From the NCBI GenBank assembly GCA_040437565.1, contig JBDOQK010000021.1, positions 62,001 to 126,000 of the forward strand: a DNA stretch of 64,000 bases, written 5' to 3'. This document shows, one piece after another, positions 5,155 through 50,549 of the stretch. The notes under the pieces are model-generated. The model ran no database searches. It had not been told where the DNA came from and saw only the letters and a program-made list of their open reading frames with translations. Positions within the stretch are counted from its first letter, which is position 1. The number at the start of each line of letters is the position of its first letter. The translations under genes and the position numbers were made by a program. This DNA comes from Albugo candida. Its lineage: Eukaryota.

Positions 5155-5260
5155 AGTTTGTTGCACTGCAATACAGCCTCCCCATTAGTTGTATTATATG
5201 ATTTCTCGTAACATGCTACCAAAGCCTTTCGTTTAGATTGAATTGTCTAAAGAGAGCTCA

Positions 5261-5627
5261 GTTAAAGGTGTCTATATTACTAGAATTAGACTAACTGACT
5301 TCTCTAGTTGCCTAGGNNNNNNNNNNNNNNNNNNNNNNNNNNNNNNNNNNNNNNNNNNNNNNNNNNNNNNNNNNNNNNNNNNNNNNNNNNNNNNNNNNNN
5401 NNNNNNNNNNNNNNNNAGAAGAACTACTCCTCATGTGCTTGATCGCTTCCGCCATCTCGGTCGTACTTAAGGGAGTTGAGAGACGGTCTTGCTCTGCTGA
5501 GGCAAGGGAAACTTGAATCGAATCGAGTAACTTTTCTGCTTTCTTTCACTTGGACCATTTGAGTCGGTCTCTGAGCTATAAAGCGAGCCCATGACACCAC
5601 CTCAATGATCTCTGAATTCGTCAATAA
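5261..5627 (-). mobile_element. 5'-truncated L1/Tx1-type LINE, interior collapsed into the N gap
   Basis: Exact 15-bp TSD TCTAAAGAGAGCTCA at 5246-5260 and 5628-5642. 5261-5316 is the conserved LINE 3' tail. 5417-5627 on the minus strand encodes TTEMAEAIKHMRSSSS, resembling the pre-RT 'E...AI..M....SPG.DG' segment. Confidence 0.75.
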
Positions 5628-8120
5628 TCTAAAGAGAGCTCATAAACTAGACTGCCTGCCAAGGGAAACATACGTGCAGGATAAACTATTGTGTAAGAGT
5701 ACATTAAACTTCACGTAAAATAGTATGTTGAAGGAAACAAAATTAAAAAAAAGCCGAAATGATCAACACCAGTGGTAGGGCTCTATTCATGATTACTTGC
5801 GTGCGAAAAAAGTTTGTGCCTAGCATCTGATATGTTTTTTAATTAGCTCTGATTCTAAAAGTCAAGTAAAGGGTCGCAGGTATAGAGTTGATTTTCTTTC
5901 AACATTTCGTCATGGAATGAATGGATTTGAAAGGTTTTCAATTTGTGGAAAAATCAAATGTACCAAACTTGGTGGGTCAAAGCGCACTGCGAGCCTTTCG
6001 CTTTGAAGAAACAGACACACTTCTGGTGATTTCGTTGAACCACAATCTTGCGGCGACGTGACCTATGTTCGTACTCTTATTATGAGAAGCAAGAGCACTT
6101 CGTGATTGCTAAACATAACTGTTTCATACCGCTTTATTTTGTGCATCATTAACAAAATTCCATAGCGTTTCGATCAATACCAGCTTCTTACCGTACCGAG
6201 CCTGATTCATCCATTGCACCAATGTATCTCGAAGAGCTGATGACATTGCATTGGAGGTACTAAAATATCCTTTCCACATGCATACTGAACTTTTAACAGG
6301 GCAAAAAGATAGAGTAGCTCATAAACACCATTTTAAAATATATCTGAAAGTGTTGCCGTAATTCTTCCTACTCATGTACTTTATCCCATACCGAGACTAG
6401 AGCTGATGAAGAAAAAATATAGCTCTTTCTGTATGTTCGCATTTGGATCCTCATATCATGTAAAATATGTGTGTTGTCGCGCTCTAAATGCTTCCAACGT
6501 AAAATAACTACAAAAAGGTAACATATTGAATCTAGTTTGAAGTATTCTCGGTCTTTTCAGAGATGCACAATTCTGGCTCAACTCTACATGAAGTCAACTT
6601 TTGATGTGGCCAGACGAAATTAATTTCTATGGTCTAAGGCCACGAGTGCTAAATGGTAATCATTTACTCCATCTTTAGAAGTTGAGGAGGCAAGTTCCCT
6701 ATGGCAACCAAAATAAGGAATATGAGATTGAGGGATATAGACAAAAGGCGTTGTCGAGATTCACCCGGGATACAAATGTGAGAAATAAAAACGAACTTCT
6801 CTATGCTTATATTATCAGGACCAAGAAACTTGATTTTTGCGCTCTCTTTCCGCCGCATAACGCGACCTCTTCCAAGGCGATAATATCTACTCATTCCATC
6901 TTGTGCGCAAATGTATGCAAAATGTAAAGGTGCATATGAGGTTTTCGTGCTACAAAATTTGATATTTTCAAGTTGAAAGCCAATTTTGATAATTATAAAA
7001 GGTGACGTGACCAAAATCGGAAATCAAGACTATGGAAAGGTAGACGGTTCTCGGATTGGAGACTATTCTTACGGGAGGGAATTCTTTCTACTCTCTATTC
7101 TTCCTTATAAACTTGTCATTTCTTTAAATCTCTCTACAGAAGATGTGGTTTCCGAAGGAGCCTCTAGCAAGGCGATCAATTTCATCGCCTAAACTATCTC
7201 ACTACCATTTACAAGAAGGTGTGATTGCATATGCGCTATTTATAATTGGAGGCACTATTTCTCCAAGAACGTACGTATAAGCCACCGATGGATTGACAAC
7301 TCGTTCACTATCGTGGTTCGATACTAGATTACCACTGATACGAGGCTTTATAGAAGAGCCGAAAAATGTTGCTTTTCTATTCTGATATGTAATAACCTAC
7401 TGATAGGAATTGCAGCCCATTAGGTGACCATAGAACATGAAAGTTCATGTTTGATAACACACAATTAATCCATGTACTACTTCTATCTAGTTTCACGCAA
7501 AAAAAGGTCAATGAAAACATACCCTTTGAGTACCAGAGTCTGTAGATCGGGAACGATGCTGAATAACTGTAAAATAAAAGCTGTTTACGGATGGAGATAA
7601 CTCCCGCCCGAGAAGCGGCAATAAAGAGTGAGTTCTGCCGATGCAGAAGAAATTTTGAATGGGCCAGATGTAAAATCCATGATCAATTCTCGCTCGATTA
7701 GTAAATCTGAATTTCTACACCAGCTGGTGCATTTTCAGGTGTCTACCATAAGACATAAGAATCAAGCACGACCCCCCCCCCTTTTTGACAAGATGGAGTC
7801 TTCCAAAGGAGTCTGTTCAATATTATAAAGGAGTATTGCTAATATAAAAAATCTCATTGTCATTTTCCTCTTACATGTGTGTCCTCTGCTATCCATTGAA
7901 GGAGACCGATAGGAAGGTATATTAGGCTTTTCCCATCATCGCAAGTAAGGCTTATGCAATGCGTTCTTAGGCAATGTTGAAATATGTCAGAGGGTGCTTG
8001 GCGCATCCANNNNNNNNNNNNNNNNNNNNNNNNNNNNNNNNNNNNNNNNNNNNNNNNNNNNNNNNNNNNNNNNNNNNNNNNNNNNNNNNNNNNNNNNNNN
8101 NNNNNNNNNAAATCTCATTG

Positions 8121-11227: not shown

Positions 11228-12296
11228 GGGAATTTGTTATATTCACTCCCTTTTTGGTTAAAAAAAATACTCCCTATTTGAATCAGGTGGCACAAATAAT
11301 TATGCTTTGTATACTTTTTATTCATATTTAAGAAATTGTTATATTCACTCCCTTTTAAGTCACGCGGAACACATTATTATACATAATTAGGAAATTGTTA
11401 TATTCACTCCCTTTTCGGTCAGATTCGCTACCTTCAAGTCACGTGACCCAGATTATTATAGATGATACAAAGCTACCAGCTCAAAATTTCGCAAGCGATA
11501 CAATTTGCCAATCTTTTGCTATATCGTTGTGAAGAATGGAACGCGATCGGTCTAAAAATGCCCGATGGACCCGAGAACGATACGTAATGCTTTATAGTTC
11601 TTGTGTTGATCGCTATGATCTATTCTCGTTCTCTTTGTTGAAATCAAATTGAGGATGACCATAATGCGCCGACGCAAAACCACCGTTTTATTTTCTACAA
11701 AGAACGAACGGTAAGATTGTGATGTCAAATCTAAGCAAGACCGATTCTTTAAGAATAAAATCAACATGAACAAATTGAAGTCTAGTAGAAATATCTTTCC
11801 TTTTGAGCAAAGGAAAGCAAATAGCTACAAAAATCTATCAAGGGACAGGATTTTGTGATTCCGATTTGTGATGTTTGGGTCTAGTACACATCTCTTTATC
11901 TCCTCGCTGAGACGCTCACAATCGTTTAGTAGCGCATAAAGTCCCTCGGACAAATGTAGGTGATCTTGTGGGGCGTATAGCGGACAGTTAATTGAGTTGG
12001 TAGAGCAAGAGTGATCACGTCTTTTACTACGATTACGAAATTTTCCAAAAGAAGCAGATGTGTGCCCAATCGGTCCAATTTCCATTGATCATTCCTGTCA
12101 GGGAGTTCCATCAAATCATCGGTATGCTCGCATANNNNNNNNNNNNNNNNNNNNNNNNNNNNNNNNNNNNNNNNNNNNNNNNNNNNNNNNNNNNNNNNNN
12201 NNNNNNNNNNNNNNNNNNNNNNNNNNNNNNNNNNTGTGCCACCTGACTAAAAAGGGAGTGAATTTAATCAAAAAGGAAGTGAATATAACACTTCCC
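11228..12296. mobile_element. Non-autonomous DNA transposon with GGGAA-TGTTATATTCACTCCC TIRs (MULE-like)
   Basis: The left end GGGAATTTGTTATATTCACTCCC...CAGGTGGCACA is mirrored by TGTGCCACCTGA...GAATATAACACTTCCC. The motif TTGTTATATTCACTCCCTTT occurs three times subterminally. Flanks are A-rich. Confidence 0.65.
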
Positions 12297-12329
12297 TAAA
12301 AAAGGCAATCGTTCTCAGCGTTGACCTTT

Positions 12330-13380
12330 TCTGTGATCAGAACTCAGCCTCCATGAATTAATGGAAATCGTTATCTCTAGTTGGTTTAAATAAATATAAC
12401 AGAATAAATAAAATAAAATTACGGGAATCGCTATCCAGCTCCCACCCTCCATGAATTATTGATCATCGTGGCCTCTGATTAGTCGGTAAAAGTGCAACGG
12501 AATAGATAAAAAATATATAATTCACACTGTTATCTCCTGCAACTTCAATTGACTTGTAGGCTTGTTGACATCTAGAATGGGCTATCTTTGCGCCCATGCT
12601 TTTCTCACCAAGTAATGTCGCTGTCTGTTGATGATATTGATCAGCATTGGTGACTGGTACAGCCAAAGCCAATTCATATTGAGGCTGAAACCATGCCAAT
12701 CAAATTTGAGAAAGCATCAAAAATGATTACTGATGAATAAGACGACGCTTCCAATCATCGTAAGCGTATGCTGCTTGACTATGTCTTGGCAGTATTAGAG
12801 AGAGAAAGTCGCTATCCTGTGCAAGTGCGCACGCGTGGCAGGCCATCGTCTCAACGCAGCGACTTCCATCGAAGTTTCAGCATATTAGCGCTGCTTTGGA
12901 TGCTCCTGTGCATCGCTGAAGATGTCGAAACGCAAAAAAACAGGCCACACTGCCAGAACCTGCCGTCAAGAAGCAACAGCACACCAACAGCACCAGCAAC
13001 ACTCGCAGCAGCAGATTTAGATATAGACTTAGATTAAGTAGTACAAAATGCAGAAACCGAGGTTTTTTTTGATTTTATTGTTTTTCATTTCGTTGCAATT
13101 ATTCATTTACGATTCCCGTAATTTTGATTTTTTTTTCCTGTGATACGTGTTTTAACCAATCCGAGGCCACTGACCTATTAATTTATGGATGCCGAGTGCT
13201 AATTACAAAATAGGGGAGTGCTGAATACCGATTACTTAAAAAAAGGAACCCGGTATAGCCACAGACTCTTTTTGGTATAGCCGAATCCCCTAACTTGATT
13301 GAGAACACCGGTATCGTTACACCCTCTAAATATGCTTGATAAATGAGAACCGGTATCGGCACACTCGCTAATTTCAAATT
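12330..13380. mobile_element. MULE-derived non-autonomous element with internally repetitive ends
   Basis: Shares GGCCTCTGATTGGT-like motifs, the 'CACCAACAGCACC...GATTTAGATATAGAC' segment and ~43-bp GAACCGGTATCG repeats with 51600-53751 and 58499-58810. Confidence 0.55.
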
Positions 13381-15122
13381 CGCAACAATTTGCGCATCAT
13401 TCAAGTACACCTGTTCCAAGCAACTGGACACTGACTGGTATGGAAATTGTGAAGAACATCTTACCCACGTTTGGACCATTCAAGCGGCTTGATGTTTTAA
13501 CGATATGACCTCGCCGGCATGCTACCATGGTTCGTTGGAAAGTAACGTCATCGTAGTGGAAGCAGACGTGCGTCTGGTGGAGTCAGAGTACGTGGGAGCT
13601 CACACCCCAGACCTTGCCTTCGTAGGGCAATACATCGATCTGTTGAAGGCTCCTGTCTGGCTGCAGGTGGATTCTCATCTTCACGGAAACGTTCTACTAG
13701 TGCTGTTGCTCATCGTCAATGTATGGGAATGGTCCCGGAACCTGCCCGTACTTTTAGGATGCAGTTCGCTCAAGCGTTCCGTATCCGTTCTCTACGTGAT
13801 TTGGTCGGTGGAAGATCAACTTGGTTCGTTTCGTCTTCCGAGTTTGTCTTGCGTTTCAGTACGCATACAATTAAAAACTCAGCGGAAGTTGCCGAGACAA
13901 AGCTTTTACGGCGTTTGTACGTCGAAGCTAGTCAAATTCTTCGTCGAATTCAACCGTAGGGGAGGGAGCTTTGTTGTGTTCAAAGCGTACCATTTCCATG
14001 GATTACCCGGCTCAGTTTGGCATTCTAGTTTCAGATAAGTAGATGTTCTTTACAAATATTCCTCGTAATCAACACTTTCGAGTTGTTGGTAAAGCTGAAC
14101 CACCGGATATGCCTGACCCACTGCTGCTGCACATACCAGAGAGAGACCGGCCAAGTGCTTCGACTTGGGTGAAGGATTTCTCAACGGGTTTTAAACGTCT
14201 TCGCGGACGTTTATTACCAATATACTCGGACATTCAGCTCCGACTTACATANNNNNNNNNNNNNNNNNNNNNNNNNNNNNNNNNNNNNNNNNNNNNNNNN
14301 NNNNNNNNNNNNNNNNNNNNNNNNNNNNNNNNNNNNNNNNNNNNNNNNNNNCCCACTGCTGCTGCACATACCAGAGAGAGACCGGCCAAGTGCTTCGACT
14401 TGGGTGAAGGATTTCTCAACGGGTTTTAAACGTCTTCGCGGACGTTTATTATTAATATACTCGGACATTCAGCTCCGACTTACATACTTAATTTTACCAG
14501 TGCGATACCGGTTCTGGTTTCTGAAGCAAGCTCATCCGGAAATCATCCTGTGCACACAGTAGCATTGTGGTGACGTGGAAAGCTTTCAGCATCTGTGTTT
14601 CGACTGTGGTAGGGCATACCCGATTTTGGAGGAGCTATTTCCTTCGTGGACAGCATTCTTTTCAGGTCGACCTTAGTGGACTCACACTGCGTGTCTACGA
14701 CTTCCTCTCCTCCGGGACAGATGGAAGTCATTCAGGATGGTGTTGGAAGATCTTTGGTTTGCATCGAATGCCATTGCGACTTCATCTGGACGGATCGGAA
14801 TAGAAGCTTTTTTGACCAAGCATCTTCAACACCAACATGACCATCTATTTTGGTGATCTTTCGGTGATCTACAGCACATTCAGCGCCCATAATCAGTTTT
14901 GTGAATATTTTTTCGGGAGATCAGATCATCTCAAGATACGATGACGTCAGCGCTCATAATTCTGAGTTGAGTAATTAATCTACTCAACCGTCTTCAACCG
15001 CGCCAAGTCCACTTTTTGTGACTTTTCAAGCCACATCTGCATGTATTACATGTTATTTAGTGTAGTCTAGGCATTTAGAGAATTCATTTACGTCTAATTC
15101 TAGTAATATAGACAACTTCAAC
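13381..15122 (+). mobile_element. L1/Tx1-type LINE, 3' part (ORF2 C-terminus plus 3' tail), decayed
   Basis: GMVPEPARTFRMQFAQAFRIRSLRDL and RLLPIYSDIQLRLT..ILPVRYRFWFLK align with GMVDEPHRTFRKSFSTVFEIRSLQDF and RVLPTFGDLKFRLACRLLPVRSRFLFLK at 17.4-18.1 kb. It ends in the conserved tail GTCTAATTCTAGTAATATAGACAACTTCAAC. Confidence 0.8.
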
Positions 15123-15136
15123 TGAGCTACCGAGGC

Positions 15137-15456
15137 GGACCCCGTCGGGGGGCTTAGCGGATAGTACACATGTGTTCCGACCGTGTGTACCCCGGTTTGA
15201 ATCCCGGCGGTGGCAAAAGGGCTGCGTTGGGGCCCCTCGGCGGAGGCAAGGATTCCTCCACGTAAATATCAACCTACTCAATGAAGATGTGGACGTGTCA
15301 AGACCGCTGGCAACTACACCAAATAATAACTGTACAGGAGTTGGACCGGGCTCTTTAAAGCCTTACATGCTAGTGATTAGAATAGAGTAGATAACCACCA
15401 AACAGTAGTAACAGAATGGTGTCTAAATAAAAGTACTACGGGCGAACACCCTTAAC
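15137..15456 (+). mobile_element. tRNA-derived SINE family B, full length (320 bp)
   Basis: A-box-like GGCTTAGCGG and B-box GGTTTGAATCC (15194-15204) in a tRNA-like head ending CGGTGGCA. Second copy at 50036-50206. 14-bp TSD TGAGCTACCGAGGC at 15123-15136 and 15457-15470. LINE-like 3' end. Confidence 0.85.
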
Positions 15457-15470
15457 TGAGCTACCGAGGC

Positions 15471-18400
15471 ACTTCTAAATTATCCGGCTACTACGTAACC
15501 GGCCAATTTGATACAAAACACCTCGAAAACTACCTTTTTCAACTCGAAAACAGGTCGACATATCGACACAGCCCAGGGTGCTAACGTCGACTTGTAGTGA
15601 CGTGGCAGCCCTCATGAGTCACCCAGCTTTTGGTGGTTGCATGATTGTTGGGGAGTCATCACCCCTGTGTGACGGCGTGAAAAGTACCCCCACCGCCAGT
15701 GTAACGAGTACAGGGAAATACCGGTAGTACCAGTGTCGGATGTAGTACCGACGGTACGTGCGGTACTGTCATTTTCTTGTCACAGGGTCACCAAAAGGCA
15801 ACTGCAAGTGTGACGACACTAAAAGTCCCACTTTGGCAGACATTATCAAGTTACAGGAGTCCTTGCGTAAGGACCAGGCTCGAGCTCGGGCGAAATTTCG
15901 CGTGGAGCTCCCTAAGCCGAAAGCCTCGGATATCGAGGCTACAATGCAGCTATGTGCTGATGGTGAGCACCCGGATTGGTCTGTTTTGTCTGCGAAATTG
16001 GAAGCAGAAAGACCTTTCCAAATCCGGAACGCAACCTTTTCAATAGTCTTGGAGACGGGCCAGTCCTTGACACGTACTCCAAATGGGAAACTTCTTACAT
16101 CCCTGATGCGAGACCACGGCAACAAGGACTTTGAAAGCCTACTGAAGAGCCGGCCAATCGGTCAGGGATCCAAAATGCGTGGGGGCAACATCAGGGTGAT
16201 GGTCACTACGGCGGATGCCTGCCAACAATTGGAGTGCCAGCCAGCGACTATCCTGGGGAACAATTTTTTTTCGGGAGTTTGATACTCTTGTCACAAAATA
16301 CTACCTCCATGTTTTCGGCGTAGACGTGGAGGAGGAGCGGAAAATCATTTTTTGCGCTCTTCACCATCTCCGATGTCAAGTGCTGTATGAACCTTTCGCG
16401 AGACGGTTCCCACTAAAGAATTGGTGATGTCGACATGGAGAGTTTACTTTGGCTGTTCGACGTGTCCCCAACAAATGGATAGAGTTGAATAAATCACTTG
16501 CGACAAACAACTTTACCCAGTAAGGTGAAAACAGGCTCCCCATTTCATCGGAACGACCACGTTTCAGTCAACGTGGTCCTTATTGCTTGGAATTGGGTGC
16601 TGCACCAGCCACAGGAGCACGGCAAAAAAACCAAAACAAACAATATCAAACACCAAAGAAAAACGCAGCCTCCAACTCAGCACCAAAACCAGCAAAAACA
16701 TGAACATCAACAAAACAAACCACCGAGTAAAATGCACTCGTGATGTACCACAAGCGGTAGTGAAGCCAATTCCAACTCAAGAATTGAAGAAGAGGAAACC
16801 TGAACTGAAGCTCTCTAATCAAATTTCGTTGGAGCTCAATACTCCCCAACTATCACACCACCAGGGGCACCAGATTTATTACAGCCCTCTTCTCCCATCC
16901 TCCAACTGGCAACTCAATCGTACTCCCAACCACGGGTGTAGCGGGATGGGGATGNNNNNNNNNNNNNNNNNNNNNNNNNNNNNNNNNNNNNNNNNNNNNN
17001 NNNNNNNNNNNNNNNNNNNNNNNNNNNNNNNNNNNNNNNNNNNNNNNNNNNNNNCCTTCGGCGACAAGATGGTGGACTACAAGTTCCTTTTTTGGTGGGA
17101 CGACTAAAGCTACAACGTATCCAATTCCTTCAGCAGTTTGCAAACGATGCGTCAACAATTATTCCTGCGAATTGGACAGCTGCCTCGACGGAAGTATTAC
17201 AACTTATCCAACCTTCCTTTGGACGACACAAGCCGATAAAAATATTTACTATCGCACCAAATCGACATGGAAAAATGGTTCAATGGGAGAGTATATCGTC
17301 ATGGTGGACACACGCATTCAAAATGTGGCATCAGATGGATTGAAGTATTACAAGTTCAGATTTGCATGTTTCACAGCGCCGTCAGTACTACATGGAACAA
17401 CCGATGTGGTTTCACTGCGACCAAAAGTTACATTTCAAAGCTGTTACTCGTAATCCGAGTACGCAAAACGTTTGGTACACTCTTGGTATGGTGGACGAAC
17501 CACATCGAACATTCCGGAAATCATTCTCTACGGTTTTCGAGATTCGCAGTCTACAAGACTTTTTTCGAGAAAGTGAAACATGGCCAACGAAGATGGATTT
17601 GGTCGCCAATAATTAGAACGACGAAGAGATGAACTAAGCGGATATGACTGAAGAAAATTTATTGAGTCGACTGTACAGTGAAGTCACTCAGGTACTTCAG
17701 CGTATCCACTCGACGATGGATCTCATCAGTTGGATCCAACGAGACACAAGTGGCAGATCCTAATATGTGGGAGTACAAATCAAGGAGAGGAAACATCATT
17801 TTTCATCTATGCCTCGCTCGAAACTCTCACAAATCGTCTGGAAACCTCCCGAACCAACCAAGAGTTATTCGATGTTGACATATTGGTCATCAAGGTAGAG
17901 ATCGGACGCACTGGATTCGGAACGAGTTGGAACTTTTATGCAACATCACGACATCGTCGGAAACGAGTATTACCCACTTTTGGAGATTTAAAGTTTCGTC
18001 TGGCCTGTCGGTTGTTGCCAGTTCGATCTCGTTTCTTGTTTTTGAAGAATATGCAGCCCGACATCATATTGTGCACGCAGCCTTCGTGTGGGGCAGTGCA
18101 GTACGATCAACCTCTCTTTTTAAAGAGCCATCACATGGCACAATTATGGAGGGATTTACTACCTAATTGGGCTCATTTTATATCCTCTTTAACAAGTTGG
18201 CCACGTATTGCATTTGCAATTGTTCCATATACGGCCGATATGGAAGGACTATCAGCAAATCATATCAGATTCATGGCTTGCATTGAAAGCGGTGACGCTG
18301 CACTTCGTCTGTACCGATAGCAATCGTCGTATGTTCGATCAGCGATCGGGAACTTCAACCATTCCAGCACTTTCCGTTATCTATCCCACATTTAGTGCGC

Positions 18401-18500
18401 GCATTCGGTAGTATCGAAGACAGTGTTACGACCAAGATGACTGCATTTGTCTTGTTTAAGTGTTAGATCAGCTCGCAACTCAAGGATCATTCGTAGACGC
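15471..18500 (+). mobile_element. L1/Tx1-type LINE: 5' UTR, frameshifted ORF1 (~15758-16950), gap, ORF2 C-terminus (17055-~18480)
   Basis: Starts immediately after the TSD. ORF1-like frames 15758-16282 and 16215-16427. The post-RT region has WWTHAFKMW, RLACRLLPVRSR and a Cys motif (LCTQPSCG). Multiple stops and frameshifts; EN/RT presumably lies in the gap. Confidence 0.75.
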
Positions 18501-19160
18501 TAATATATTTTTCCTTCTAACGTCGTGGCTAGCAAACATGTTGCTAGAGCCAAAAAAGCAGCCCATTTATTTCGAGAAAAAACACACGCGCATCGAGGAA
18601 GGTGATTGTTCAGCGCGTGTCGATGAAGCAGTGTATACTCTTATTGACGATTTTAGAACGGCAATAGACCTAATCAAAGTCAACAAAGTCGTACAAGAAG
18701 AACGTTCACGTACCGAAGGCTGAAAAGCATGTTAGCTTCCGCTATCATGACAATGGCTTAGTTCAATGCACCTTGTACCATGCGATAGCACTTCAAGGAG
18801 TGCTCAAACGATAAATGCGGTACAGTAGTTATAAGATTGGTGGTCTTTCACACTATCAATCGTGTTCTTTAGGCCTTAGACACGCTTCGGACACCACATT
18901 CGTCTAGATGTGGTATAAAATAATCGTTGAAAAGAATTCAGTAAAGCGACAGGACTAAATTTAGTCGGCGGTACACTGATAGAAAGTTTCACCACCACCT
19001 GAGTTATGCAGTCGAGCGACACAATCACTCGCATTTTTCGAGCTGATGTTAATTTGACAANNNNNNNNNNNNNNNNNNNNNNNNNNNNNNNNNNNNNNNN
19101 NNNNNNNNNNNNNNNNNNNNNNNNNNNNNNNNNNNNNNNNNNNNNNNNNNNNNNNNNNNN

Positions 19161-19602
19161 TGATGTTTGGAAACCCTTTACACTGGTAATTGAGGATATT
19201 CGGTTAACGTTAGTCGCGGTTGCGATCCATATTGTTTGGACGGTTCGAAAACGAAGACTTTTCGATCAAGGCGTTTCGGTGCCTACTACCCTTGCTGTTT
19301 TGGTGTCTTGTAGCACACTGAATGCCCATATCCGATACTTTACTGTCATATTAAGAACAAATACTAGTTGAATGTGAAGCTATCTCTTTGCTACGCCCAA
19401 TCTATTTCAGCTTCGACGACGTTTAAGATTCTTAATCGGTGCTGAGTAACATGTCCACTCAGTACTACTTATTTCCTGTTCGCTGAACTTCGGTATGGAT
19501 TTTTCTACATCAACCTTGCATGAATGCGTTGTTTATTTTATCTTAGCTTAGTCATTTGGGAAAGAGGTGGCGTCTAATTTTAGTAATATGATCAACTTCA
19601 AC
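19161..19602 (+). mobile_element. LINE 3' end fragment (same group)
   Basis: AVAIHIVWTVRKRRLFDQ...STLNAHIR aligns with TLHFVCTDSNRRMFDQ...TFSARIR. The tail CGTCTAATTTTAGTAATATGATCAACTTCAAC is followed by TGGGCC. Confidence 0.75.
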
Positions 19603-19745
19603 TGGGCCTTGCGAGTACTTCTCAATTGACGAGCTATTATAAATTTGAAAAGATGGCATAGCTTAGAAGTATTATGCAAACCCAAGCAACTGTTTACTCT
19701 TCCTGTCGAAAAAAATGGTTCCAACCTGCATATCAAGCCTACATA

Positions 19746-19902
19746 TCCTTACACTGACAGAGTCCTCGTGTCTCTGTAGTATGTAAGGTATTGACACGAC
19801 GTCTGCGGAAAGTGCACCAGTCATGCTCCTTACGTTGACAGAGACCTCGTGTCTGCGTAGTATGTAAGGTATTGACACGTCGTGTGCGGAAAGTGCACCA
19901 GT
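19746..19902. repeat. Tandem duplication, ~81-bp unit x2
   Basis: GTAGTATGTAAGGTATTGACACG...GCGGAAAGTGCACCAGT occurs at 19776 and 19857. Confidence 0.85.
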
Positions 19903-21127
19903 TGTCCACCTATATCGAGCGTCTCTTTTCCGATCAAAGCAAGATGGCTACAATTTGGACATCGGTAAATTCTGCTACTGTCAGTTTTTACTCTTCAACC
20001 AGAATTGGCGCATTTTTTCTGTTCAAAGATGCTTTCGCTCCCTTGTGTATGGATTCTGTTGATAGTAATGGTTAAATCCTTGAGATCTGATAGGTCAGGA
20101 TTACAATTGAGGCCATCTGAACTCGTCACAATTGCAGACATTTTTGCTAAGCAAAATCGATATCTTGGGGCAGGTAAGGAGAAACATAATACACAAAATC
20201 AATTTACACATCAACAACGCAGCCAACATTTACAACATTCTTCGCCCCGCGGGCTGCAAGATGTTTTCCCTGATCAAAGCTGAGGCTATAGAGAAGTAAG
20301 CTTCAGAATCGCCTTTGCAAGTGTGACAAGATGGCGAGTGCGCTGGAACACACGCGGGGTAGTTCATTTCCAGGTATTTGTGGAAGGAAATACAGCATCA
20401 GGAATTTACACGACGATGTGAAAAGATAAAATGCCACGTGGCGTATGTGAAAGCCTGCACCTGCAAATTTCTTGTTTTACGAACCTGCAAAAGCTTCCTT
20501 GGCTTCCAAATAGTTTTTTGGTAACCTTGTAACCAAAAATAAAATAAAAGTATGACACGATCACTTCGAACTTTGAAAAGCTGACTCAATGTCTTTTTAC
20601 ATTGTCTTTATTTATCCACGTAAAATAGTTTTTTTTTATGTGTGTTCTCACTGATGTTCATGCATTGCCATCATACAAATACATATATTTTTCTTGTCCA
20701 GCTCGAACTGTTTTCACAATATAACCGCGCATTGCGCATCACCCATAATCACATGGTTTGTTCGAATTTATGCCAGTATGATATCTATGACAAGTTGATA
20801 GGACAAGAATGAATCAGGCTAAAACCCAGCTTCGATCACGCAAGTAAGACCAAATTAGGACATGAAGAGGCAAAGGATTAAACGAAATCGATACAAATAA
20901 GCGCTCGTAAAAGTGATGTGGTTGTCCTTTCCATAAATTGATACCTGAAAGCCCAGAACAACATACTTCAGCTTTACCGTCATGCTCACTAAATGCCCAG
21001 TGAGACCAATTTGTATAATCAAGGACTATTCGGATTGGTGGATAATGAGATCATTATATAGTAGTATTTCATTGGAGGATAATCATCACGTACTGGCTTG
21101 TTTGTGGTGCTCGCTGCTCCATCAAAA

Positions 21128-22986: not shown

Positions 22987-24892
22987 TTTTTGATTTCGCA
23001 ATAGCCAATTTTATTGGAACAGGCTTAAGGACGAAGTGGTCGATCCAGGAAAGTGGAATATTTTAACAACGTGATACTTCATTGCTTTTATCACCTAATT
23101 TACTGACTATAAAAATTTTGAGATAAGATTCATCGTAGGAGCGCTTTTTGTGCATTCGTGTCTTATCAGGCGATATTTAATACATTCTAGGAAAAAGCCT
23201 TTGCAAGATTGAACTGATTCAAACCCACCGACATAATCATATGCTTTGTTTCCAAACCCAATTGAATTTTCCATTTTATTTCGCAATCCCGCTTTCACTT
23301 CTCATTCCCTAAATTAATATTTCTCATGATGATCTGCATTCTACCACGTGGTCGCATTCTGGTCGAAACATTCCAGTAGACATACCAAATTGGAGTACTC
23401 CAATGTCTCAGAAAAGTATCTTACGAAGCATGAGTGCCATATCACTAACAGATCTTGTCATTCTTGATGCCTCATGTCGCCTGGACTTGCACGGTAAGGC
23501 TGACACCAAGAATTTATGCATACCAATGTAGCATGGGTTTGATGTCGTCGTCTTCGAAAGGACAGCATTCACTATCGTGAGCTGAAAGTTTTCTTATCAC
23601 AAGGCTTGCAAGCGACACAGTATACAGATAGTAGCACTTTCTCCCATGAGTACAGGAGCGATACCGTCCAGACAGGATGCTCTATCGATTATCGATTGCT
23701 TCGGTAATTGAGCAAATTAGTACCCCTCATCACATAGAGACCACCTCACTTAATCTGGAATGTCTTTATCCGTGCATTGTCGTTTAGCCCGTGGCCATCC
23801 TCTCCTTTCTACTCCCAGATTGTTTGATTCCGGTATTATCATCAGATAAAGTGATACCTGAATAAGATACTTTTGTCTTGCAATCAAAAAAAGGAATAAA
23901 GATGCACTCCGACTGAAAAGTGACATGAAGATCAAGTTTGGTAGCTTATATTGTGATCGGCTATCCAATTCAAGTCCAAGTAGCCAAAAAATGGACAGCA
24001 ACATCCCTTTCTAGTTGCATGGAATAGAGACTTTGTTATCTTTGTGATTTACGTATTGAAGTAGTGCTTGAAATCAATTATGGAATTTAGTAGTATCCAT
24101 ATCACATAGTATTACTCATGCAATAACCTTTTGTCGTCGTATGCGCAATTTCCATATTCTTGATGTGGTGATTATTGCAGCTATGGCTTCGCTGCTCTAC
24201 CCAGACGTACCGAGTCATGTAAATTAAATGGCGCAAGTGCACTCGTTAAGTAGTATTAAATTTCTGTAATCGAACAGCGACTTTTAGCTCCTTTGACTTT
24301 TGCTCCCCTTTAGCTGCATTTGTTGCTCAACTGGAGCCTAGCCTTCGATGATGATGTGATATATTTGCAATTACCACTCTAATTCATGTACTTCTTCCTC
24401 AACAGGTCTGATCTGTGCTATTGAGCATGGTTGTATTTTTTGTAGTCGCCCATTCGAATAGATTTTACTGATTAGAGTCTACCATGACTTGCCGCTACAT
24501 CATTTCATTCTGTACTGATTTCAGTAGCAACAAATTTCATTATCCGCAAAGCTAAAAAGTATGCGATTTTTGACCTCATTTATACAGACAAAGAAAGGTC
24601 TTGAATTTTCGCTCTTGTAACAGGTTGACAGTGCTCCTAATCAAAACAAAATGTGTCAAATATCTTGTACGTCAATTTTTTCTGAACAAACTTGATATCA
24701 ATAGGGAAGAGAATCGACGAAGGCGCATCAAAATGCACGCAAAAGGCCGGAATTCCATAACCATTCTCCATAGAAAAAAGGAGGGCAGTTGCGGCACCTC
24801 CTTCCACTTGCACTCGCGCGCAGCAAAACAACATCTATTTATATGGAAGTCTTCTATAAATAAAGAATAGTGCTCCAGAAGAATGCATTGGA

Positions 24893-27800
24893 ATGGAAGC
24901 AACGGGAGGCAAGACGGTATATTCGGCGCGATACGACACATTGTTACCAGCAGAAAAAAGCGCCCTTTGGGATTCCTTTTCTGAATGGAGAGCTTCAAAT
25001 TGCATGCATCAGGAAGCTTCCATTTCGAACCTCAAGTCAACACTCTTGGCAATGCAGGCGAATTTCATGGATCAATCACAGTATATTCGAGGCGACTATG
25101 TATGGCAAAAGAGCATTGCGCAATTTCTTCATGAAATGAATGATTTGGTACAAGGCAAACTTGATCGATTGTATAGTGAAAACGAATCGTATTGTTCGAG
25201 TTTTTGCATTCAGATTGCACAATTTTTTCAACAAAAAAACAAACAGCATCAATGCGATCTCTCACGTGAGCGCGTGATTTTTGAGGAGAAAGTGCGAAAA
25301 GTGCGGCAGACGTTCAAGATAGAGAAAGCTAATTCGGCAGTATTGGAGAAGTGCCTCCGTCAGCAAGAAATGCTACAACTCAAGTCGAGATTCGACATGT
25401 CTGTCGCACAACTTGAAACAGAGCATGCTGAACGCGAAAAGCTTCTTACCCAAGCTATTATCGAGCTCAAATCAACGTGTAATTTGACCCAAACGCGCGC
25501 AGAAGAGCTTTCATTTGCATACCAACAGAACCTGGTAGAGATAGAGCAACTTAGGGAAGAAGTAGTAGCATCAAAACAGAGTAATGTTTCAAAAACTGTG
25601 ACGACACCTCCAAAGGAAGAAATGACAACAAAATCATTAACCGATGCACGTCAAAGTGTAGCTACTCTCAAGGTGAAATTACTAGAAATGCAGGCAGAAA
25701 AGATGTCAATCAGCGAGCGTTTCGCTCAAATAACAAGAGACTTTCATAAAATCAGCGAAGACCTTATTTTGATGAGAAATCATGCAAGCAAATTGGATCG
25801 AGAAATGTTTGAGAAAACCAAACGGATTGCGGAGCTAGAAGAGAACAGTTTTGCTTCAAAAGAGATGCGAATGGAATTTGAAATTGGATTTGAACGTCTT
25901 AATCTCGCACTAACCGAAAAATCACGACTGTGCGATTGTTTGTTGGAGAAACAAGAGCGGCTAGAGAAGACACTGTTGAAAGAGATAGAAGAAGCGAACG
26001 AATTCGATGAGTGTGACGTTCAGATCAAGGCACCAGCGAGTAAGGATTCCAAAAAAAATCTTTGGGAGGCTGCACGCAAATTCTATGACTGGAAGAGCGA
26101 TCACAGCAAGATCGAAATCAAAGTACCTACGGATTCTTTCACTCCATTGCAATTGGAATGCAGTCACGCATTGCAGCTTCGACTCGAAATGGAACAGAAA
26201 TTCGGAGCGCAGTTGCAAGCAAGAGTGGTGCAGGAACGAAATTTTGTCTTGGCATACCTGAGAGCTCAAAATCGCAACAAGCAAAAAGCAGCAGCTTTCA
26301 TGCAAACCCTCTCATCGAAATGGAAGAAAAGGCAGACAAAAGCCGGATTGCCGACATCATACGCATCTTTACGTGATGGGTCGATGCTTGCAGAAGCAGA
26401 ATCCGTCTTGGATTTGTACACTTTTATTGAGCATCTTGTCGCCGAAGCATATGATAAGCTCGGGTACACTGACTGGAATGACACAGATATCGCGTTCTTG
26501 CAAGAAGAACGGAATAGTCTCAAAGATCGAGTAGGAAGATACGAAGCCCAATTACAGCATCAGCAGGAACAGATCCAAAAGCACTTGCATCATGCTGCAA
26601 AGTCACAATTACTACATCAAGAATTCTTTTTCTTGATGTAGTAATTGTGACTTTGCAGCATGATGCAAGTGCTTTTGGATCTGTTCCTGCTGATGCTGNN
26701 NNNNNNNNNNNNNNNNNNNNNNNNNNNNNNNNNNNNNNNNNNNNNNNNNNNNNNNNNNNNNNNNNNNNNNNNNNNNNNNNNNNNNNNNNNNNNNNNNNAG
26801 CGAGCGTTTCGCTCAAATAACAAGAGACTTTCATAAAATCAGCGAAGACCTTATTTTGATGAGAAATCATGCAAGCAAATTGGATCGAGAAATGTTTGAG
26901 AAAACCAAACGGATTGCGGAGCTAGAAGAGAACAGTTTTGCTTCAAAAGAGATGCGAATGGAATTTGAAATTGGATTTGAACGTCTTAATCTCGCACTAA
27001 CCGAAAAATCACGACTGTGCGATTGTTTGTTGGAGAAACAAGAGCGGCTAGAGAAGACACTGTTGAAAGAGATAGAAGAAGCGAACGAATTCGATGAGTG
27101 TGACGTTCAGATCAAGGCACCAGCGAGTAAGGATTCCAAAAAAAATCTTTGGGAGGCTGCACGCAAATTCTATGACTGGAAGAGCGATCACAGCAAGATC
27201 GAAATCAAAGTACCTACGGATTCTTTCACTCCATTGCAATTGGAATGCAGTCACGCATTGCAGCTTCGACTCGAAATGGAACAGAAATTCGGAGCGCAGT
27301 TGCAAGCAAGAGTGGTGCAGGAACGAAATTTTGTCTTGGCATACCTGAGAGCTCAAAATCGCAACAAGCAAAAAGCAGCAGCTTTCATGCAAACCCTCTC
27401 ATCGAAATGGAAGAAAAGGCAGACAAAAGCCGGATTGCCGACATCATACGCATCTTTACGTGATGGGTCGATGCTTGCAGAAGCAGAATCCGTCTTGGAT
27501 TTGTACACTTTTATTGAGCATCTTGTCGCCGAAGCATATGATAAGCTCGGGTACACTGACTGGAATGACACAGATATCGCGTTCTTGCAAGAAGAACGGA
27601 ATAGTCTCAAAGATCGAGTAGGAAGATACGAAGCCCAATTACAGCATCAGCAGGAACAGATCCAAAAGCACTTGCATCATGCTGCAAAGTCACAATTACT
27701 ACATCAAGAAAAAGAATTCTTACTGGCCGAATTGAATACTAGACACCGCGAATTGAGACGCTCATACGAAGAAGCAATCGCCACACGAGAAACCAGCATA

Positions 27801-28133
27801 AATTATCATCTTAAATCGAACGAGTGTTCGGTCGCTCAAAATACAATCAAATCTCTCAGTTTGATACATTACGACAAATCATCAAGTCAGCCTGCAATGA
27901 TCAATACGGGTTTACGTGCTGTCGGCCTTAAATCTCAAAGTCCTCGTTCTGAAGCAAAAAACATGGATGAAAGTGGTTCTTTTTCTTCGCTTCCGGTTCG
28001 TCCGGTAGGTAGAAATCCAAATGAAAAGCGACGCGATCATGTTCGAGGTCTTTTGAAAGAGGAATTGATGAGCACCACCGCACATTCCTCGAATGACAAT
28101 CATGCAGTTGTTGGATCCGATGGCGTAAGTTGA
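24893..28133 (+). CDS. Single long coiled-coil protein (~717 aa after collapsing a 1087-bp assembly duplication)
   Basis: ORFs 24893-26641 and 26856-28133 share an identical block at offset 1087 across the gap. E/K/Q/L-rich heptad-like composition. Confidence 0.75.
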
Positions 28134-28571
28134 CAGCTGAAATGCGAATTTTGATGCTGACATTCATTCACTCATCTGACAGCTATTCCAAATATTTCAA
28201 CGACGTCTTTCCCGCCGGAAAGAGTGAATGTCAGCGTTGGGATACTGAAATCAGAATCAGATTCACCTTTATTCATACAGTAATACCGGTACGTTTTCCG
28301 ATTTTGTGGCTCTAGTATCGCGCATCAAACTGTATCCACTCGCTCCAAAGAATATTGTATCAAGTACGTATGCAACAATGCGTTTTTCTCACAATAAGTA
28401 AAGCTAACGCATACGATCACTGTGTCTAGTTCACGCGCGCAACCATAAAGTAGTGGACATCTCTTTGAGGATTCATTTTTCTCTTCTCTACCGGGTATAC
28501 GGTACGTCCACGCCGTCATGAGGTATCACATGTATACTTATACCTCATGTATGTATAGTCGTCATACAAAA

Positions 28572-31379
28572 ATGAACGCAAATTGGCAGCCACAAAGCAA
28601 TTTATTGGAGCAAGTTGTGAGCCTTTTAAAGGCGTATTTGATTCCAAACAACGACATACAGCGTCAGAGTTATGAGCGCCTGCAACAATTCCAGCAAAAT
28701 CTGGAATTCAACCTGTATTTAGTCCACATTTTATCAAACCAATCCTCTGAATTCAGCCCGGACATTCGACAACTGGCAGGCTTACTACTGAAACGCAATA
28801 TCAAATCGCAAAATGTCGCAATATCTACCGGAAAAACAAGCGCACAAATGGAAATGCTCGCGTATATACGATCTCAAATCATTTGTATACTGGCTGATTC
28901 GAATCAAAGTATACGAAATACCGCCAGCTCATTGGTAACTACCTTTGTGTCTCAGTATACGTTTATCGATGAATGGCCAGAATTGATGCCGGCGCTATTT
29001 CAATATCTTGAGCAACAGAACAATGTCGATGCGATTGCCGGGGCATTCAGTGCTCTGTGTAAGATCTGCGAAGACTCGGCTTCGAGATTAGAAAGCTCAC
29101 CGACACGGCCGCTGAATAAACTGATACCGATATTACTGCAGTATTTTCATCATCCGACATCTCAATTCCGCCAGGATGCTCTCAATTGTATCAATCATGT
29201 GCTCGTGTTCATGCCTGTGGGGCTGGTGATACATATGGAAGGCTTCTTACAGGGAATATCGAATCTCACCCAAGATGCAAACAATCAAGTGCGAAGATTG
29301 GTATGTAAAAGTATTGTCATATTACTGGAAGTCGGTGTGCAGTACCTTGCACCTCATTTGGATCAGATCATTCAATTTATCTTACGAGCAAATGAAGACG
29401 ACGATGAAGAAATCGCTATTGAAGCGTGTGAGTTTTGGGCGTCTTTTGTGGATCTAAAAGAGTTTAAAGATTTGAAGCCGATTTTACAACCTTATTTACC
29501 ACGCGTTCTGCCGCTTTTATTCAGTAAAATGGTGTATTCGGAAGAAGATCTCGCTACTTTTGAAGCAGAAGAACAACAGCAGAATGAAAGTGTTCCCGAC
29601 AGACCTGAAGATATCAAACCGATTTTTCACAAAACTGTGAAGAAAGCAGATGGACAGATCGAGTCGAGTCTCAAGCCACAATCAGTGGAGGCACAATGTA
29701 CATCGGAGACGACCTTCAAAGGAGCTTGCGGAGTGACAAATGTTCATGTTGGAGACGACTCAGAGGACGAGGATGATGAAGACGATGATGATGATGACTC
29801 TATGCTTCAATGGAATCTTCGTCGATGCTCTGCTGCAAGTCTAGATAACTTGGCCAATGGGTACGGGAATCAAGTATTGCCAGTTTTATTGCCATTATTG
29901 CAAGAACGCTTATCACTCGATGGTCCTTGGCCTTTAGTGGAAAGTGGTATTCTCGCATTAGGAGCTATTGCTGATGGATGTTATACAGGAATCACTCCTC
30001 ATTTACCTCAGCTTTTCCCATTTCTGATGCAGAAACTCAACGATCCAGCGCCATTTATTCGAAGTATTACTTGCTGGACACTGAGTCGATACGCTTCTTG
30101 GATCGTAGATCAAAGCAATCACGATCAATTTCTCAAGCCTTTGATGGAAGGAATGTTACAACGCATCTTGGATCCGCATAAAAAGGTTCAAGAAGCCGCG
30201 TGTTCCGCCTTTTGCACTTTGGAAGAAGAAGCACGTGAAGATCTCATCCCGTACTTGGGCTTTATTCTCCAGACATTCATGTGTGCATTCGCAAAGTATC
30301 AAGCGAAAAACCTCCTCATTTTGTACGATGCGATTGGCACATTGGCAGATTCCGTCTCGAGTCATTTGAATGAGAAGGAGTTCATTGCGGTTTTAATGCC
30401 GCCACTACTTTCAAAATGGAACGAATTGGCTGACAATCGTCGTGAGATCCTTCCGCTTTTCGAGTGTTTGGCGTCTGTTGCCTCGGCTTTGGGTAATGGC
30501 TTTGAGGAATTCGCTTTGATCGTTTATGGGCGCTGTCAACGCATTGTGGAGAATGAACTGATGGCTGATGCAATGTATGAGCAGAATCCAACTGATTGTG
30601 ATGCTGGCGATCCTGAATTCCTAGTTTGCGCATTGGATCTGATCTCTGGAATTGTGGAAGGAATTCAGTGTCAATGTGAGGGGCTACTAATGGGGTCAAA
30701 TATTCTGAACATTGTGGCGAATTGTATTCAGCATAGCACCTTGGATGTTCGCCAAAGTGCGATGGGTGTGATTGGTGATATTGCGAAATATGCACCAGCG
30801 ATTTTGAAGCCAGGATTGGAGCAAATGATTCCGATATTGGTGCACAATATTGACCCGGAAATACCGACTGTATGTAACAATGCGAGTTGGTCAGTCGGGG
30901 AAATTGCGATGCAATTAAGAGGGGACATGGAGCCGTTTGTGCATGATATACTTACGAGATTGATTGGGATGATAAATCGACCGAAATTACCGCGAAATCT
31001 GATCGAAAATTGCGCGATTACGATTGGTCGATTGGGATACGTGTGTCCGCATCAAGTGGCACCGTACCTTAAAGAATTCGCGAAACCATGGTGTCGCGCA
31101 TTGGCTCATTTAAATTCGATGGAGGAGAAGGAGGAATGTTTTTTGGGATTGTGTTATGTGATTCAGGCGAATCCGAATGGTATTGTGGCAGACTTTGTGT
31201 ATTTTTGTGGCGCAATAGCATCATTGCAAGGCCAAGAAATTGAGAATCAAGAACTAAAGCAGATGCTGTATCAATTGGTTCACAGCTTCAAGCAAAGTAT
31301 GGGTGAAAATTGGGCGAATTACTTTGCTGCTTTCCCGAAAAGCCTACAAACTTTTTTAAGTACGTGTTTCCACATATGA
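28572..31379 (+). CDS. TNPO1: Transportin-1 (importin beta-2 / karyopherin beta2)
   Basis: Intronless ORF from 28518, likely start MNANWQP at 28572. Motifs IRQLAGLLLKRNI, ACEFW, VPDRPEDIKPIFH, an acidic H8 loop, WNLRRCSAASLD, ILALGAIADGC, KKVQEAACSAF, YQAKNLLILYDAIGTLADSV and ENCAITIGRLG. Confidence 0.95.
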   Translation: MNANWQPQSNLLEQVVSLLKAYLIPNNDIQRQSYERLQQFQQNLEFNLYLVHILSNQSSEFSPDIRQLAGLLLKRNIKSQNVAISTGKTSAQMEMLAYIRSQIICILADSNQSIRNTASSLVTTFVSQYTFIDEWPELMPALFQYLEQQNNVDAIAGAFSALCKICEDSASRLESSPTRPLNKLIPILLQYFHHPTSQFRQDALNCINHVLVFMPVGLVIHMEGFLQGISNLTQDANNQVRRLVCKSIVILLEVGVQYLAPHLDQIIQFILRANEDDDEEIAIEACEFWASFVDLKEFKDLKPILQPYLPRVLPLLFSKMVYSEEDLATFEAEEQQQNESVPDRPEDIKPIFHKTVKKADGQIESSLKPQSVEAQCTSETTFKGACGVTNVHVGDDSEDEDDEDDDDDDSMLQWNLRRCSAASLDNLANGYGNQVLPVLLPLLQERLSLDGPWPLVESGILALGAIADGCYTGITPHLPQLFPFLMQKLNDPAPFIRSITCWTLSRYASWIVDQSNHDQFLKPLMEGMLQRILDPHKKVQEAACSAFCTLEEEAREDLIPYLGFILQTFMCAFAKYQAKNLLILYDAIGTLADSVSSHLNEKEFIAVLMPPLLSKWNELADNRREILPLFECLASVASALGNGFEEFALIVYGRCQRIVENELMADAMYEQNPTDCDAGDPEFLVCALDLISGIVEGIQCQCEGLLMGSNILNIVANCIQHSTLDVRQSAMGVIGDIAKYAPAILKPGLEQMIPILVHNIDPEIPTVCNNASWSVGEIAMQLRGDMEPFVHDILTRLIGMINRPKLPRNLIENCAITIGRLGYVCPHQVAPYLKEFAKPWCRALAHLNSMEEKEECFLGLCYVIQANPNGIVADFVYFCGAIASLQGQEIENQELKQMLYQLVHSFKQSMGENWANYFAAFPKSLQTFLSTCFHI

Positions 31380-43010: not shown

Positions 43011-43094
43011 AACGGGATTATTGAAAATACATGCCAAGATAATTGAAAGATGAGATTGAAAATATACCACAAGATGAAGTAATGAAACATATAC

Positions 43095-50545: not shown

Positions 50546-50549
50546 ATGG

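Follow-up and report, generated by a model that had tools for sequence, protein, structure and literature searches.

Head-to-tail LINE and SINE insertions separated by a probable 14-nt target-site duplication of tRNA-like layout in Albugo candida

We analyzed a stretch of 64 kb from Albugo candida (contig JBDOQK010000021.1, positions 62,001 to 126,000; hereafter the window, whose own numbering is used throughout), a eukaryotic short-read scaffold with 43% G+C and 21 gaps of exactly 100 N each. Three retroelements, a long interspersed nuclear element (LINE1), a short interspersed nuclear element (SINE-B) and a second LINE (LINE2), are arranged head to tail in this window, with the same 14-nt spacer, S1, on both sides of the SINE. 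S1 is probably a target-site duplication (TSD) that arose upon insertion of SINE-B by the enzymes of an L1-group LINE, and this would also explain the stacking of the elements. The finding belongs to the known class of target-specific LINE/SINE systems. The order on the plus strand is LINE1 tail, S1, the 320-nt SINE-B, S1 and the 5’ end of LINE2, and the locus comprises the following features, including the untranslated regions (UTR) and open reading frames (ORF) of the LINEs:

13040-13375, no strand assigned: right arm of a dispersed DNA-transposon-like repeat, abutting or interrupting LINE1 (from repeat copies in the window)
13376-15122, plus strand: LINE1, degraded 3’ third of an L1-group ORF2 and 3’ UTR, ending ...CAACTTCAAC
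15123-15136, plus strand: spacer S1 copy a, putative left copy of the SINE-B TSD
15137-15456, plus strand: SINE-B, 320 nt, with an A-box-like motif at 15154-15165 and a B box at 15194-15204
15457-15470, plus strand: spacer S1 copy b, putative right copy of the SINE-B TSD
15471-16954, plus strand: 5’ part of LINE2, about 75 nt of 5’ UTR and ORF1 (from protein relatives and read joints)
17055-18684, plus strand: 3’ part of LINE2, C-terminal third of ORF2 and a diverged tail, ending ...AAAGTCAAC and followed by AAAGTCGTACAAGA

S1 reads TGAGCTACCGAGGC and occurs exactly twice in the window, at 15123-15136 and 15457-15470. An earlier reading made from the letters of the window (the sequence-only reading) had proposed a 14-mer repeated on both flanks of the SINE and a single orientation for all three elements, and both statements hold exactly, all three lying on the plus strand. 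No further copy of S1 was found in the 64 kb at up to 2 mismatches and no convincing one at up to 4, while the chance expectation for a second exact copy of a given 14-mer in 64 kb is 0.0002. The repeat in fact extends over 17 nt, AAC plus S1, because both upstream elements end in AAC. Neither a third copy of S1 nor partners of the other spacers described below are present in the window.

The boundaries of the elements next to S1 were determined from homology and raw reads. LINE1 is collinear between 13386 and 14879 with residues 912-1326 of P0029, a 1372-aa relative of LINE ORF2 (tblastn). Its last 60 nt or so recur at 5315-5255(-) and 42983-42919(-), and a diverged version is found at 19571-19602. 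Among the raw reads 3601 of the more abundant family start matching at 15092 and 912 cease matching after 15125, where their continuations are heterogeneous with an agreement of 0.35. The recurring tail and the heterogeneous read ends therefore place the true 3’ end of the LINE at 15122, as previously proposed, within about 3 nt. On the other side 15471 behaves as the 5’ end of an element, since reads from two other genomic places join LINE tails to 15469 and 15471; the start of the second LINE had been placed at the same nucleotide by the sequence-only reading. Downstream of it 15551-16320 aligns to the Albugo LINE ORF1-like proteins P0001 and P0002 (the latter an Albugo laibachii protein), and the ORF1-like frame 15746-16279 has 12 relatives, of which every named one is from Albugo laibachii or Albugo candida. 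The read consensus upstream of 15554 holds the ATG of ORF1, a stretch that LINE2 does not contain (15548-15554). Judged by this comparison, the ORF1 start codon of LINE2 appears to be deleted and the copy is probably dead. The 3’ part of LINE2 is divided from the 5’ part by the 100-N gap 16955-17054 and matches residues 886-1354 of P0029 over 17056-18486 (tblastn). Both parts belong to families of 25-135 copies as estimated from read depth. For this estimate we used a separate raw-read run labeled as the same species, with both mate classes summed, a single-copy depth of about 39 in bins 18469-19700 to which copy numbers were scaled, and only copies at least 88% identical were counted.

The left boundary of LINE1 was previously ascribed to a DNA transposon cutting the element at about 13380. 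Homology to the LINE indeed stops at about 13375-13383, next to a repeat with 74-78% copies at 52172-52525(-), 12325-12430(-) and 51590-51723(+), a 50-nt inverted repeat (12381-12430 / 13110-13159) and ACCGGTATCG subrepeats. The boundary is consistent with insertion of a DNA-transposon-like element. Within LINE1 the gap 14252-14351 is flanked by two 135-nt copies (14117-14251 and 14352-14486) with 98.5% identity. Going by this overlap, the gap is probably spurious, consisting of unmerged contig ends, and LINE1 would be continuous there.

If S1 is a TSD, other insertions of the family should be considered as well. We located the following further copies of LINE and SINE elements:

5246-5642, minus strand: 5’-truncated LINE (5627-5261, including the gap 5317-5416), with a fragment preceding the reverse transcriptase (RT) at 5533-5417 (tblastn)
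19161-19602, plus strand: tail of LINE3, an old copy with the depth of single-copy sequence (from homology and read depth)
19603-19616, plus strand: spacer S4 of 14 nt, TGGGCCTTGCGAGT, dividing the LINE3 tail from the head of LINE4
19617-19960, plus strand: 5’ end of LINE4, starting ACTTCTCAATT, similar to the LINE2 start ACTTCTAAATT
42911-43477, minus strand: LINE tail ending at 42925, followed by TGAGCTCAGAAAGT
49799-50035, minus strand: SINE-A with A-box-like and B-box-like motifs and a 90% copy at 50307-50545(+)
50036-50206, plus strand: SINE-B copy 2, two variable nt and the element from 50038, cut by a gap at 50207

Of the nine 3’ junctions examined, seven have the hexamer TGAGCT directly behind the element end, namely the LINE tails at 15122, 5261(-) and 42925(-), SINE-B at 15456, two metagenome contigs (L001 and L002, see below) and a contig joint at 15463 (X1). 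The two remaining junctions continue with TGGGCC (19602) and AAAGTC (18684). A complete TSD pair is formed by the 15-nt TGAGCTCTCTTTAGA at 5642-5628 and 5260-5246(-), which surrounds the 5’-truncated LINE 5627-5261. TGAGCT at 5642 is derived from the target, since the upstream copy of this TSD sits in sequence without LINE homology. The same applies to TGAGCTGGGTGCGG in front of SINE-B copy 2, because it passes without a break into the remainder of SINE-A on the opposite strand: the first 14 nt of SINE-A (50022-50035, TGAGCTGGGTGCGG on the plus strand) are the spacer before SINE-B copy 2. The length of the duplication is nearly constant, with 14 and 15 nt for the complete pairs and 14, 14, 15, 14 and 14 nt for spacers between stacked elements. 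The proposal that the target is regenerated upon insertion is thus supported, S1 behaving as a TSD.

One could assume instead that the 14-mer, or most of it, is owned by the elements, either as a common 3’ end of LINE and SINE or as a short 3’ transduction. Each copy of S1 comes after an element end, TGAGCT follows nearly every tail, and L002 has almost the same 14-mer after the same tail, all of which this assumption would account for. However, the 8 nt following TGAGCT vary between copies, and a shared 14-nt element end is therefore excluded. The heterogeneous read flanks past 15125 also disagree with a common end, as do spacers starting with TGAGCT that lie upstream of elements, in non-element sequence (5642) and within SINE-A (50022). 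We consider element ownership of the 14-mer highly improbable and a TSD the better explanation of S1.

Junctions in which a tail is separated by about 14 nt from the next head recur beyond the S1 locus, which answers the search for other stacks with 14-nt spacers that had been suggested earlier. A second tail-14 nt-head junction in the window connects the end of LINE3 at 19602 via S4 with the head of LINE4 at 19617. The heads of LINE4 and LINE2 share their first 11 nt, and about 25 of 30 letters at ~19693-19725 of LINE4 agree by eye with the read consensus just upstream of 15554; a local alignment of the two heads was not significant (score 37, shuffle mean 30, sd 4.8). In the raw reads two further LINE-LINE joints were detected: 24 reads lead from the LINE tail (to 15127) via CAAAGGA to 15469, resulting in the spacer TGAGC+CAAAGGA+GC, and 22 reads lead from 15130 via ACTCGAG to 15471, with the spacer TGAGCTAC+ACTCGAG. 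Contigs of other runs contain SINE tails joined to SINE heads, from 15463 via TAAG to 15134 (spacer TGAGCTA+TAAG+GGC) and from 15462 via GGGTATGGGC to 15139 (spacer TGAGCT+GGGTATGGGC), and in another contig a SINE tail continues via GACAGGCT into the body of a LINE. The 5’ region of LINE4 additionally carries two 76-nt direct repeats with 91% identity (19746-19821 and 19827-19902).

Since the window is a short-read scaffold, misjoining of repeats has to be considered as the origin of the stack. The 21 gaps, the unmerged 135-nt overlaps at 14252-14351 and the multi-copy nature of all three elements would be compatible with such an artefact, and no bridging read or contig piece for the two junctions of this locus is found among the best-supported rows listed. 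Both junctions are nevertheless contained in one gap-free contig (14352-16954), a repeat of 17 nt is not long enough for an assembly to collapse on it, and the same architecture with other spacers appears in raw reads, in contigs of three other runs and at 19602/19617. An assembly artefact therefore has very little probability in our view. We give equally little weight to head-to-tail junctions arising in a single event, be it a jump of the RT between RNA templates or unequal recombination. Template jumping is known for LINE reverse transcriptases and tail-head junctions are frequent here, but a jump would leave no target copy between neighboring elements and would not produce an identical 14-mer on either flank of the SINE. 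Recombinational duplication is opposed by the fact that LINE1 and LINE2 are members of different families, with 35-53% protein identity in the shared part of ORF2. Serial insertion with duplication of the target accounts for these junctions best.

The type of the LINE family was determined through its relatives. A profile-free search with 17682-18317 returned 65 relatives, whereas a Pfam search of 30 ORFs of the window detected no LINE domain in any of them. P0029 contains Exo_endo_phos (E 5.5e-7) and RVT_1, and RVT_1 is also present in P0057 and P0025, named pol-like proteins of Globisporangium splendens. Among proteins of solved structure, human LINE-1 ORF2p is closest to P0029 (E 2.4e-61, residues 7-875, covering endonuclease and RT). 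Within the window an RT fragment is located at 50901-51381, with 64-72% to P0029/P0025, and none remains in LINE1 or LINE2. The trace of an endonuclease is limited to a 36-residue match of 50687-50799 to P0029 residues 9-46. Both lie in a LINE fragment at 50687-51381(+), comprising the beginning of the endonuclease together with a piece of the RT; this fragment is situated directly downstream of the plus-strand copy of SINE-A. A C-terminal Cys/His region follows the RT: 14410-14718 of LINE1 aligns to 17931-18239 of LINE2 and to P0029 residues 1147-1290, and a CX2-3CX7HX4C pattern, the form of the LINE C-terminal Cys/His motif, can be seen by eye in LINE1. Judged by these relatives, the family is an L1-group LINE with an RT, a C-terminal CCHC motif and, probably, an apurinic-type endonuclease.

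Copies of the LINE end in a conserved ...GTCTAATTCTAGTAATATAGACA.CTT.AAC and carry no poly(A). Folding of seven element tails revealed no consistent hairpin; only the tail of L001 stands out with z -2.9. Features of Penelope-like elements, namely a hammerhead ribozyme or GIY-YIG endonuclease and a tandem built from a single element, were not observed: Rfam gave no match at all in 12000-20000 (E<=1), the relatives carry Exo_endo_phos and the stack mixes families.

SINE-B is present at about 35 times single-copy read depth. Copy 2 (50038-50206) is 94.7% identical over 169 nt. Compared with the consensus A- and B-box motifs, copy 2 carries an exact B box (50093-50103), that of copy 1 has one mismatch, and the A box is partial. 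ARAGORN found no tRNA in SINE-B, and Rfam searches over 12000-20000, 49700-50650 and 15100-15500 gave no credible match, whether to a tRNA, a hammerhead or another family. SINE-B has 10 of its 11 terminal nt in common with the abundant LINE family (LINE tail 5261-5271(-); chance 8e-6), and similarity to LINE tails beyond the last 11 nt was not above that of shuffled sequences. Such a shared 3’ end is as expected for a SINE that would borrow the 3’-end recognition of the LINE. The two SINE-A copies (49799-50030(-) and 50307-50545(+), 90% identical) face each other head to head, with SINE-B copy 2 and a gap between them, which may be a real inverted arrangement or an effect of scaffolding.

We also considered the nature of the target. 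AGCTCA, the antisense of TGAGCT, forms together with a preceding T and a following GTT the A-box/D-arm core of many tRNAs. Reading S1 on the opposite strand as the 5’ end of a tRNA, the junction falls after tRNA nt 14, and a 14-nt duplication thus reaches exactly nt 1. We compiled a set of 13 spacers, of which the window supplied 6, reads or contigs 5 and the metagenome loci 2. On the opposite strand 6 of the 13 read N7-TA-GCTCA, for which the probability by chance is 7e-5 at p = 1/16, and T is found at position 8 in 7 of the 13. Two spacers are SINE-A heads with an A-box-like motif.

The metagenome loci were obtained by scanning JGI metagenome contigs with 22 nt of the LINE tail, which returned two contigs, L001 and L002, presumably from other oomycetes. 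In each of them the match is broken inside the LINE tail, and the flanks are G+C-rich and unique. The tail is followed by TGAGCTATTCCCCC in L001 and by TGAGCTATCGAGGC in L002. The latter equals S1 at 7 of the 8 variable positions, an agreement with a chance of about 0.005 for S1 against the 12 other spacers. L001 contains a tRNA-Thr(CGT) gene at 381-454(+), with about 270 nt between it and the LINE tail upstream, and the first 14 nt of this gene match the reverse complement of the read-derived spacer TGAGCTATAAGGGC in 13 of 14 positions. The tRNA-Thr gene and the tRNA presumed to be disrupted lie on opposite strands, an arrangement that fits insertion into a tRNA gene cluster. A bona fide tRNA was found on the upstream side of none of the insertions; in one case this side is a SINE head with an A-box-like motif, where 50022-50035 is continuous with SINE-A. 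A full-text literature search for the reverse complement of S1 and for the L002 variant, each as DNA and RNA, returned one unrelated virus paper.

On the basis of these results we favor, with some reservation, an origin of S1 itself from a tRNA gene, i.e. from the 5’ end of a conserved tRNA. The proposed piling up of elements at a tRNA locus thereby stands in part: stacking recurs and the layout of the spacers is tRNA-like, and a tRNA gene at this particular locus is likely while unproven. A different role of tRNA, with a 5’ fragment of it serving as primer of reverse transcription and staying in the product, was rejected, as spacers are also found upstream of elements, a documented TSD pair does not resemble a tRNA and one of the spacers runs on into SINE-A DNA.

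The main competitor shares the TSD and the stacking and differs in the target: the enzyme would need TGAGCT only, anywhere in the genome, and the tRNA look of S1 would be a coincidence, with no tRNA gene ever having existed at this site. Any 7-mer passes as an acceptor strand, so that the layout is constrained by T8 and A9 alone; 4 of the 13 spacers are not tRNA-like, including the fully documented TSD pair 5642/5260, and ARAGORN detected no tRNA gene in the 64-kb window. Against this, the TA layout occurs in 6 of the 13 spacers with 1/16 expected, S1 is nearly identical to the L002 spacer from another organism, one spacer equals the 5’ end of a real tRNA-Thr in 13 of 14 positions, and two spacers coincide with SINE heads that bear an A-box-like motif. 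We therefore regard recognition of the bare hexamer as unlikely and retain a tRNA-derived target for S1. The four spacers that are not tRNA-like nevertheless imply that the element also lands at TGAGCT outside tRNA genes, and specificity for tRNA genes is partial at best.

Besides these four spacers and the missing tRNA gene, several observations speak against a TSD of tRNA-like origin as the explanation of the stack. The apparent 3’ end of LINE2 at 18684, aligned with other tails, is followed by AAAGTCGTACAAGA, which is unrelated to S1, while serial insertion into S1 predicts a third copy of S1 at this place unless the two halves of LINE2 are different copies. Either LINE2 arrived by a non-canonical event or the gap 16955-17054 joins different copies, a wrong join being possible. 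The largest class of loose read ends begins after 15125 (TGA) and not after TGAGCT; many copies may share only TGA, or the aligner clipped early. The Rfam tRNA model matches neither SINE head (for SINE-B at E up to 10). The joints reported above are the best-supported rows, beyond which there are 40 spacers, 97 joints and 1756 loose ends, and the reference used to detect the read-derived spacers itself includes S1. Finally, endonuclease and RT of the family are fragmentary in the window, and its domains were assigned through relatives with 28-54% identity.

Taking the evidence for a TSD together with the tRNA-like layout, insertion could proceed as follows, where the positions of the nicks and the order of the insertions are what we infer. 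The endonuclease would nick the primer strand, which is the tRNA-sense strand, just after 5’-AGCTCA-3’, and the nicked 3’ end would prime cDNA synthesis from the last base of the element RNA (...AAC, terminal C). The second strand would be cut 14-15 bp away, and each insertion would be bracketed by a duplication of 14-15 nt that starts with TGAGCT on the sense strand of the element. An element would thus enter tRNA genes or SINE heads in antisense orientation at nt 14/15, with the duplication spanning tRNA nt 1-14. Both copies of the duplication would be valid new targets, one of them remaining joined to the rest of the original site and the downstream one being preceded by the ...CAAC end of the element, which would mimic the D-loop side of the site. 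As both copies could be hit again, later insertions would land beside earlier ones and generate head-to-tail stacks of one orientation with the same spacer.

A far-reaching and rather doubtful extension of this model is that the 14-bp stagger is tuned to the tRNA gene, forming a gene-sparing, A-box-directed system that is conserved across oomycete genera and could drive tRNA/SINE-like arrays. The conservation across genera is suggested by the GC-rich metagenome contigs, in which the same 22 nt of the tail are found. If the stagger were tuned in this way, cuts after A14 and at position 1 would rebuild an entire tRNA coding sequence, nt 1-76 with both internal promoter boxes, on one side of each insertion. 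The host gene would thereby remain intact and permanently available as a target, while the ...CAAC end of the element would restore a second such site.

Elements with comparable properties are known from other hosts. R1, which inserts into insect 28S ribosomal DNA (rDNA), is a sequence-specific LINE of the apurinic type with a 14-bp TSD and tandem copies in its target; it differs from the family described here in the rDNA target and in belonging to another LINE clade. Close in behavior are the target-specific Tx1-clade LINE Tx1-Mar and its partner SINEU-3 of crocodilians, for which sequential tandem insertions sandwiching a TSD are described in parts of PMC4494074. According to the same portions of that source they resemble the present pair in being an L1-group LINE with an apurinic-type endonuclease (probable for the family here) and a partner SINE at the same target, and in forming TSD-sandwiching tandems (PMC4494074). 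The TSD has a fixed length in both systems, 16 bp there compared to 14-15 bp here, but the target of Tx1-Mar is a single site in a Mariner transposon, as far as the sections concerned state (PMC4494074), whereas the AGCTCA core is common to many tRNA genes and SINE heads. The hosts also differ, crocodilians in one case and an oomycete in the other.

LINEs inside tRNA genes are represented, in the relevant excerpts of PMC4640811, by NeSL-1_TV (tRNA-Pro), LIN15_SM (tRNA-Arg) and LIN25_SM (tRNA-Glu). These are placed there with or near the NeSL clade, alongside Utopia, for which a restriction-like endonuclease is stated (PMC4640811); that all three carry such an enzyme is our inference. They share with the present family insertion at a defined site within tRNA genes, but each uses one tRNA species in the accounts available in that source (PMC4640811), while the motif here is apparently common to several tRNAs and is hit at non-tRNA sites in addition. 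In contrast to them the family described here is related to L1 ORF2p and, judged by its relative P0029, would have Exo_endo_phos. TSD-sandwiching tandem insertions are also mentioned for Utopia-1_NVit in a section of PMC4640811.

The use of multicopy small-RNA genes as safe landing sites is a further parallel. Dewa of zebrafish uses ‘the spacer of tRNA-Leu’ and Dada DNA transposons are found inside tRNA genes, with tandems of Dada-U1 divided by the TSD, according to parts of PMC3706591. Dewa, however, sits in the spacer and not in the gene, and Dada is a DDE transposon with a TSD of 6-7 bp, as given in the same parts (PMC3706591). TRE5-A and TRE3 of Dictyostelium are LINEs that likewise accumulate at tRNA genes, but they integrate at a distance through contacts with the RNA polymerase III (pol III) machinery, as outlined in passages of PMC3706591 and PMC5391098. 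Insertion at a set distance outside a tRNA gene, typical of TRE elements, was not observed here, the junction lying within tRNA-like sequence at nt 14/15.

In the literature outside Repbase we found no LINE/SINE pair of Albugo or another oomycete with an AGCTCA or tRNA-like target. If confirmed genome-wide, the present pair would be an apurinic-type L1-group LINE that, together with its own SINE, recognizes the core of the pol III A box and could thus insert into many tRNA genes and SINE heads. Specificity of LINEs for tRNA genes is described only for three NeSL-related families in the portions of PMC4640811 that treat them. Confirmation would also provide a reason at the sequence level for head-to-tail stacks of retroelements in oomycetes and a testable link to tandem tRNA-like arrays. 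Huge head-to-tail arrays of tRNA/SINE-like units are reported for Peronospora effusa and ascribed to recombination, and very large ones are also reported in downy mildews and Phytophthora, in the parts of PMC11540230 concerned with arrays. An A-box target that is regenerated upon insertion is an alternative to recombination as their origin that is worth testing. For the annotation of Albugo and its relatives, element boundaries, a rule for the TSD and the pairing of LINE and SINE are gained.

Outside the retroelements an uninterrupted frame of 976 codons at 28449-31376(+) contains importin-beta/HEAT-repeat domains (HEAT_EZ 9e-30, IBN_N 5e-10); it belongs to an ordinary host gene, which has no introns in the part covered. 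Upstream of it, at 24860-28130(+), frames of 593 and 444 codons surround a gap and have no Pfam match. The internal pattern of ORFs is repeated there at an offset of ~1087 nt (e.g. 25964-26311 and 27051-27398), and the region may represent a gene with internal repeats or a contig end that was duplicated. Identical stretches are also found around the gaps 42030-42129 and 42565-42664, at 41905-41950 / 42177-42222 and at 42394 / 42748 on the minus strand, and are likely unmerged assembly overlap.

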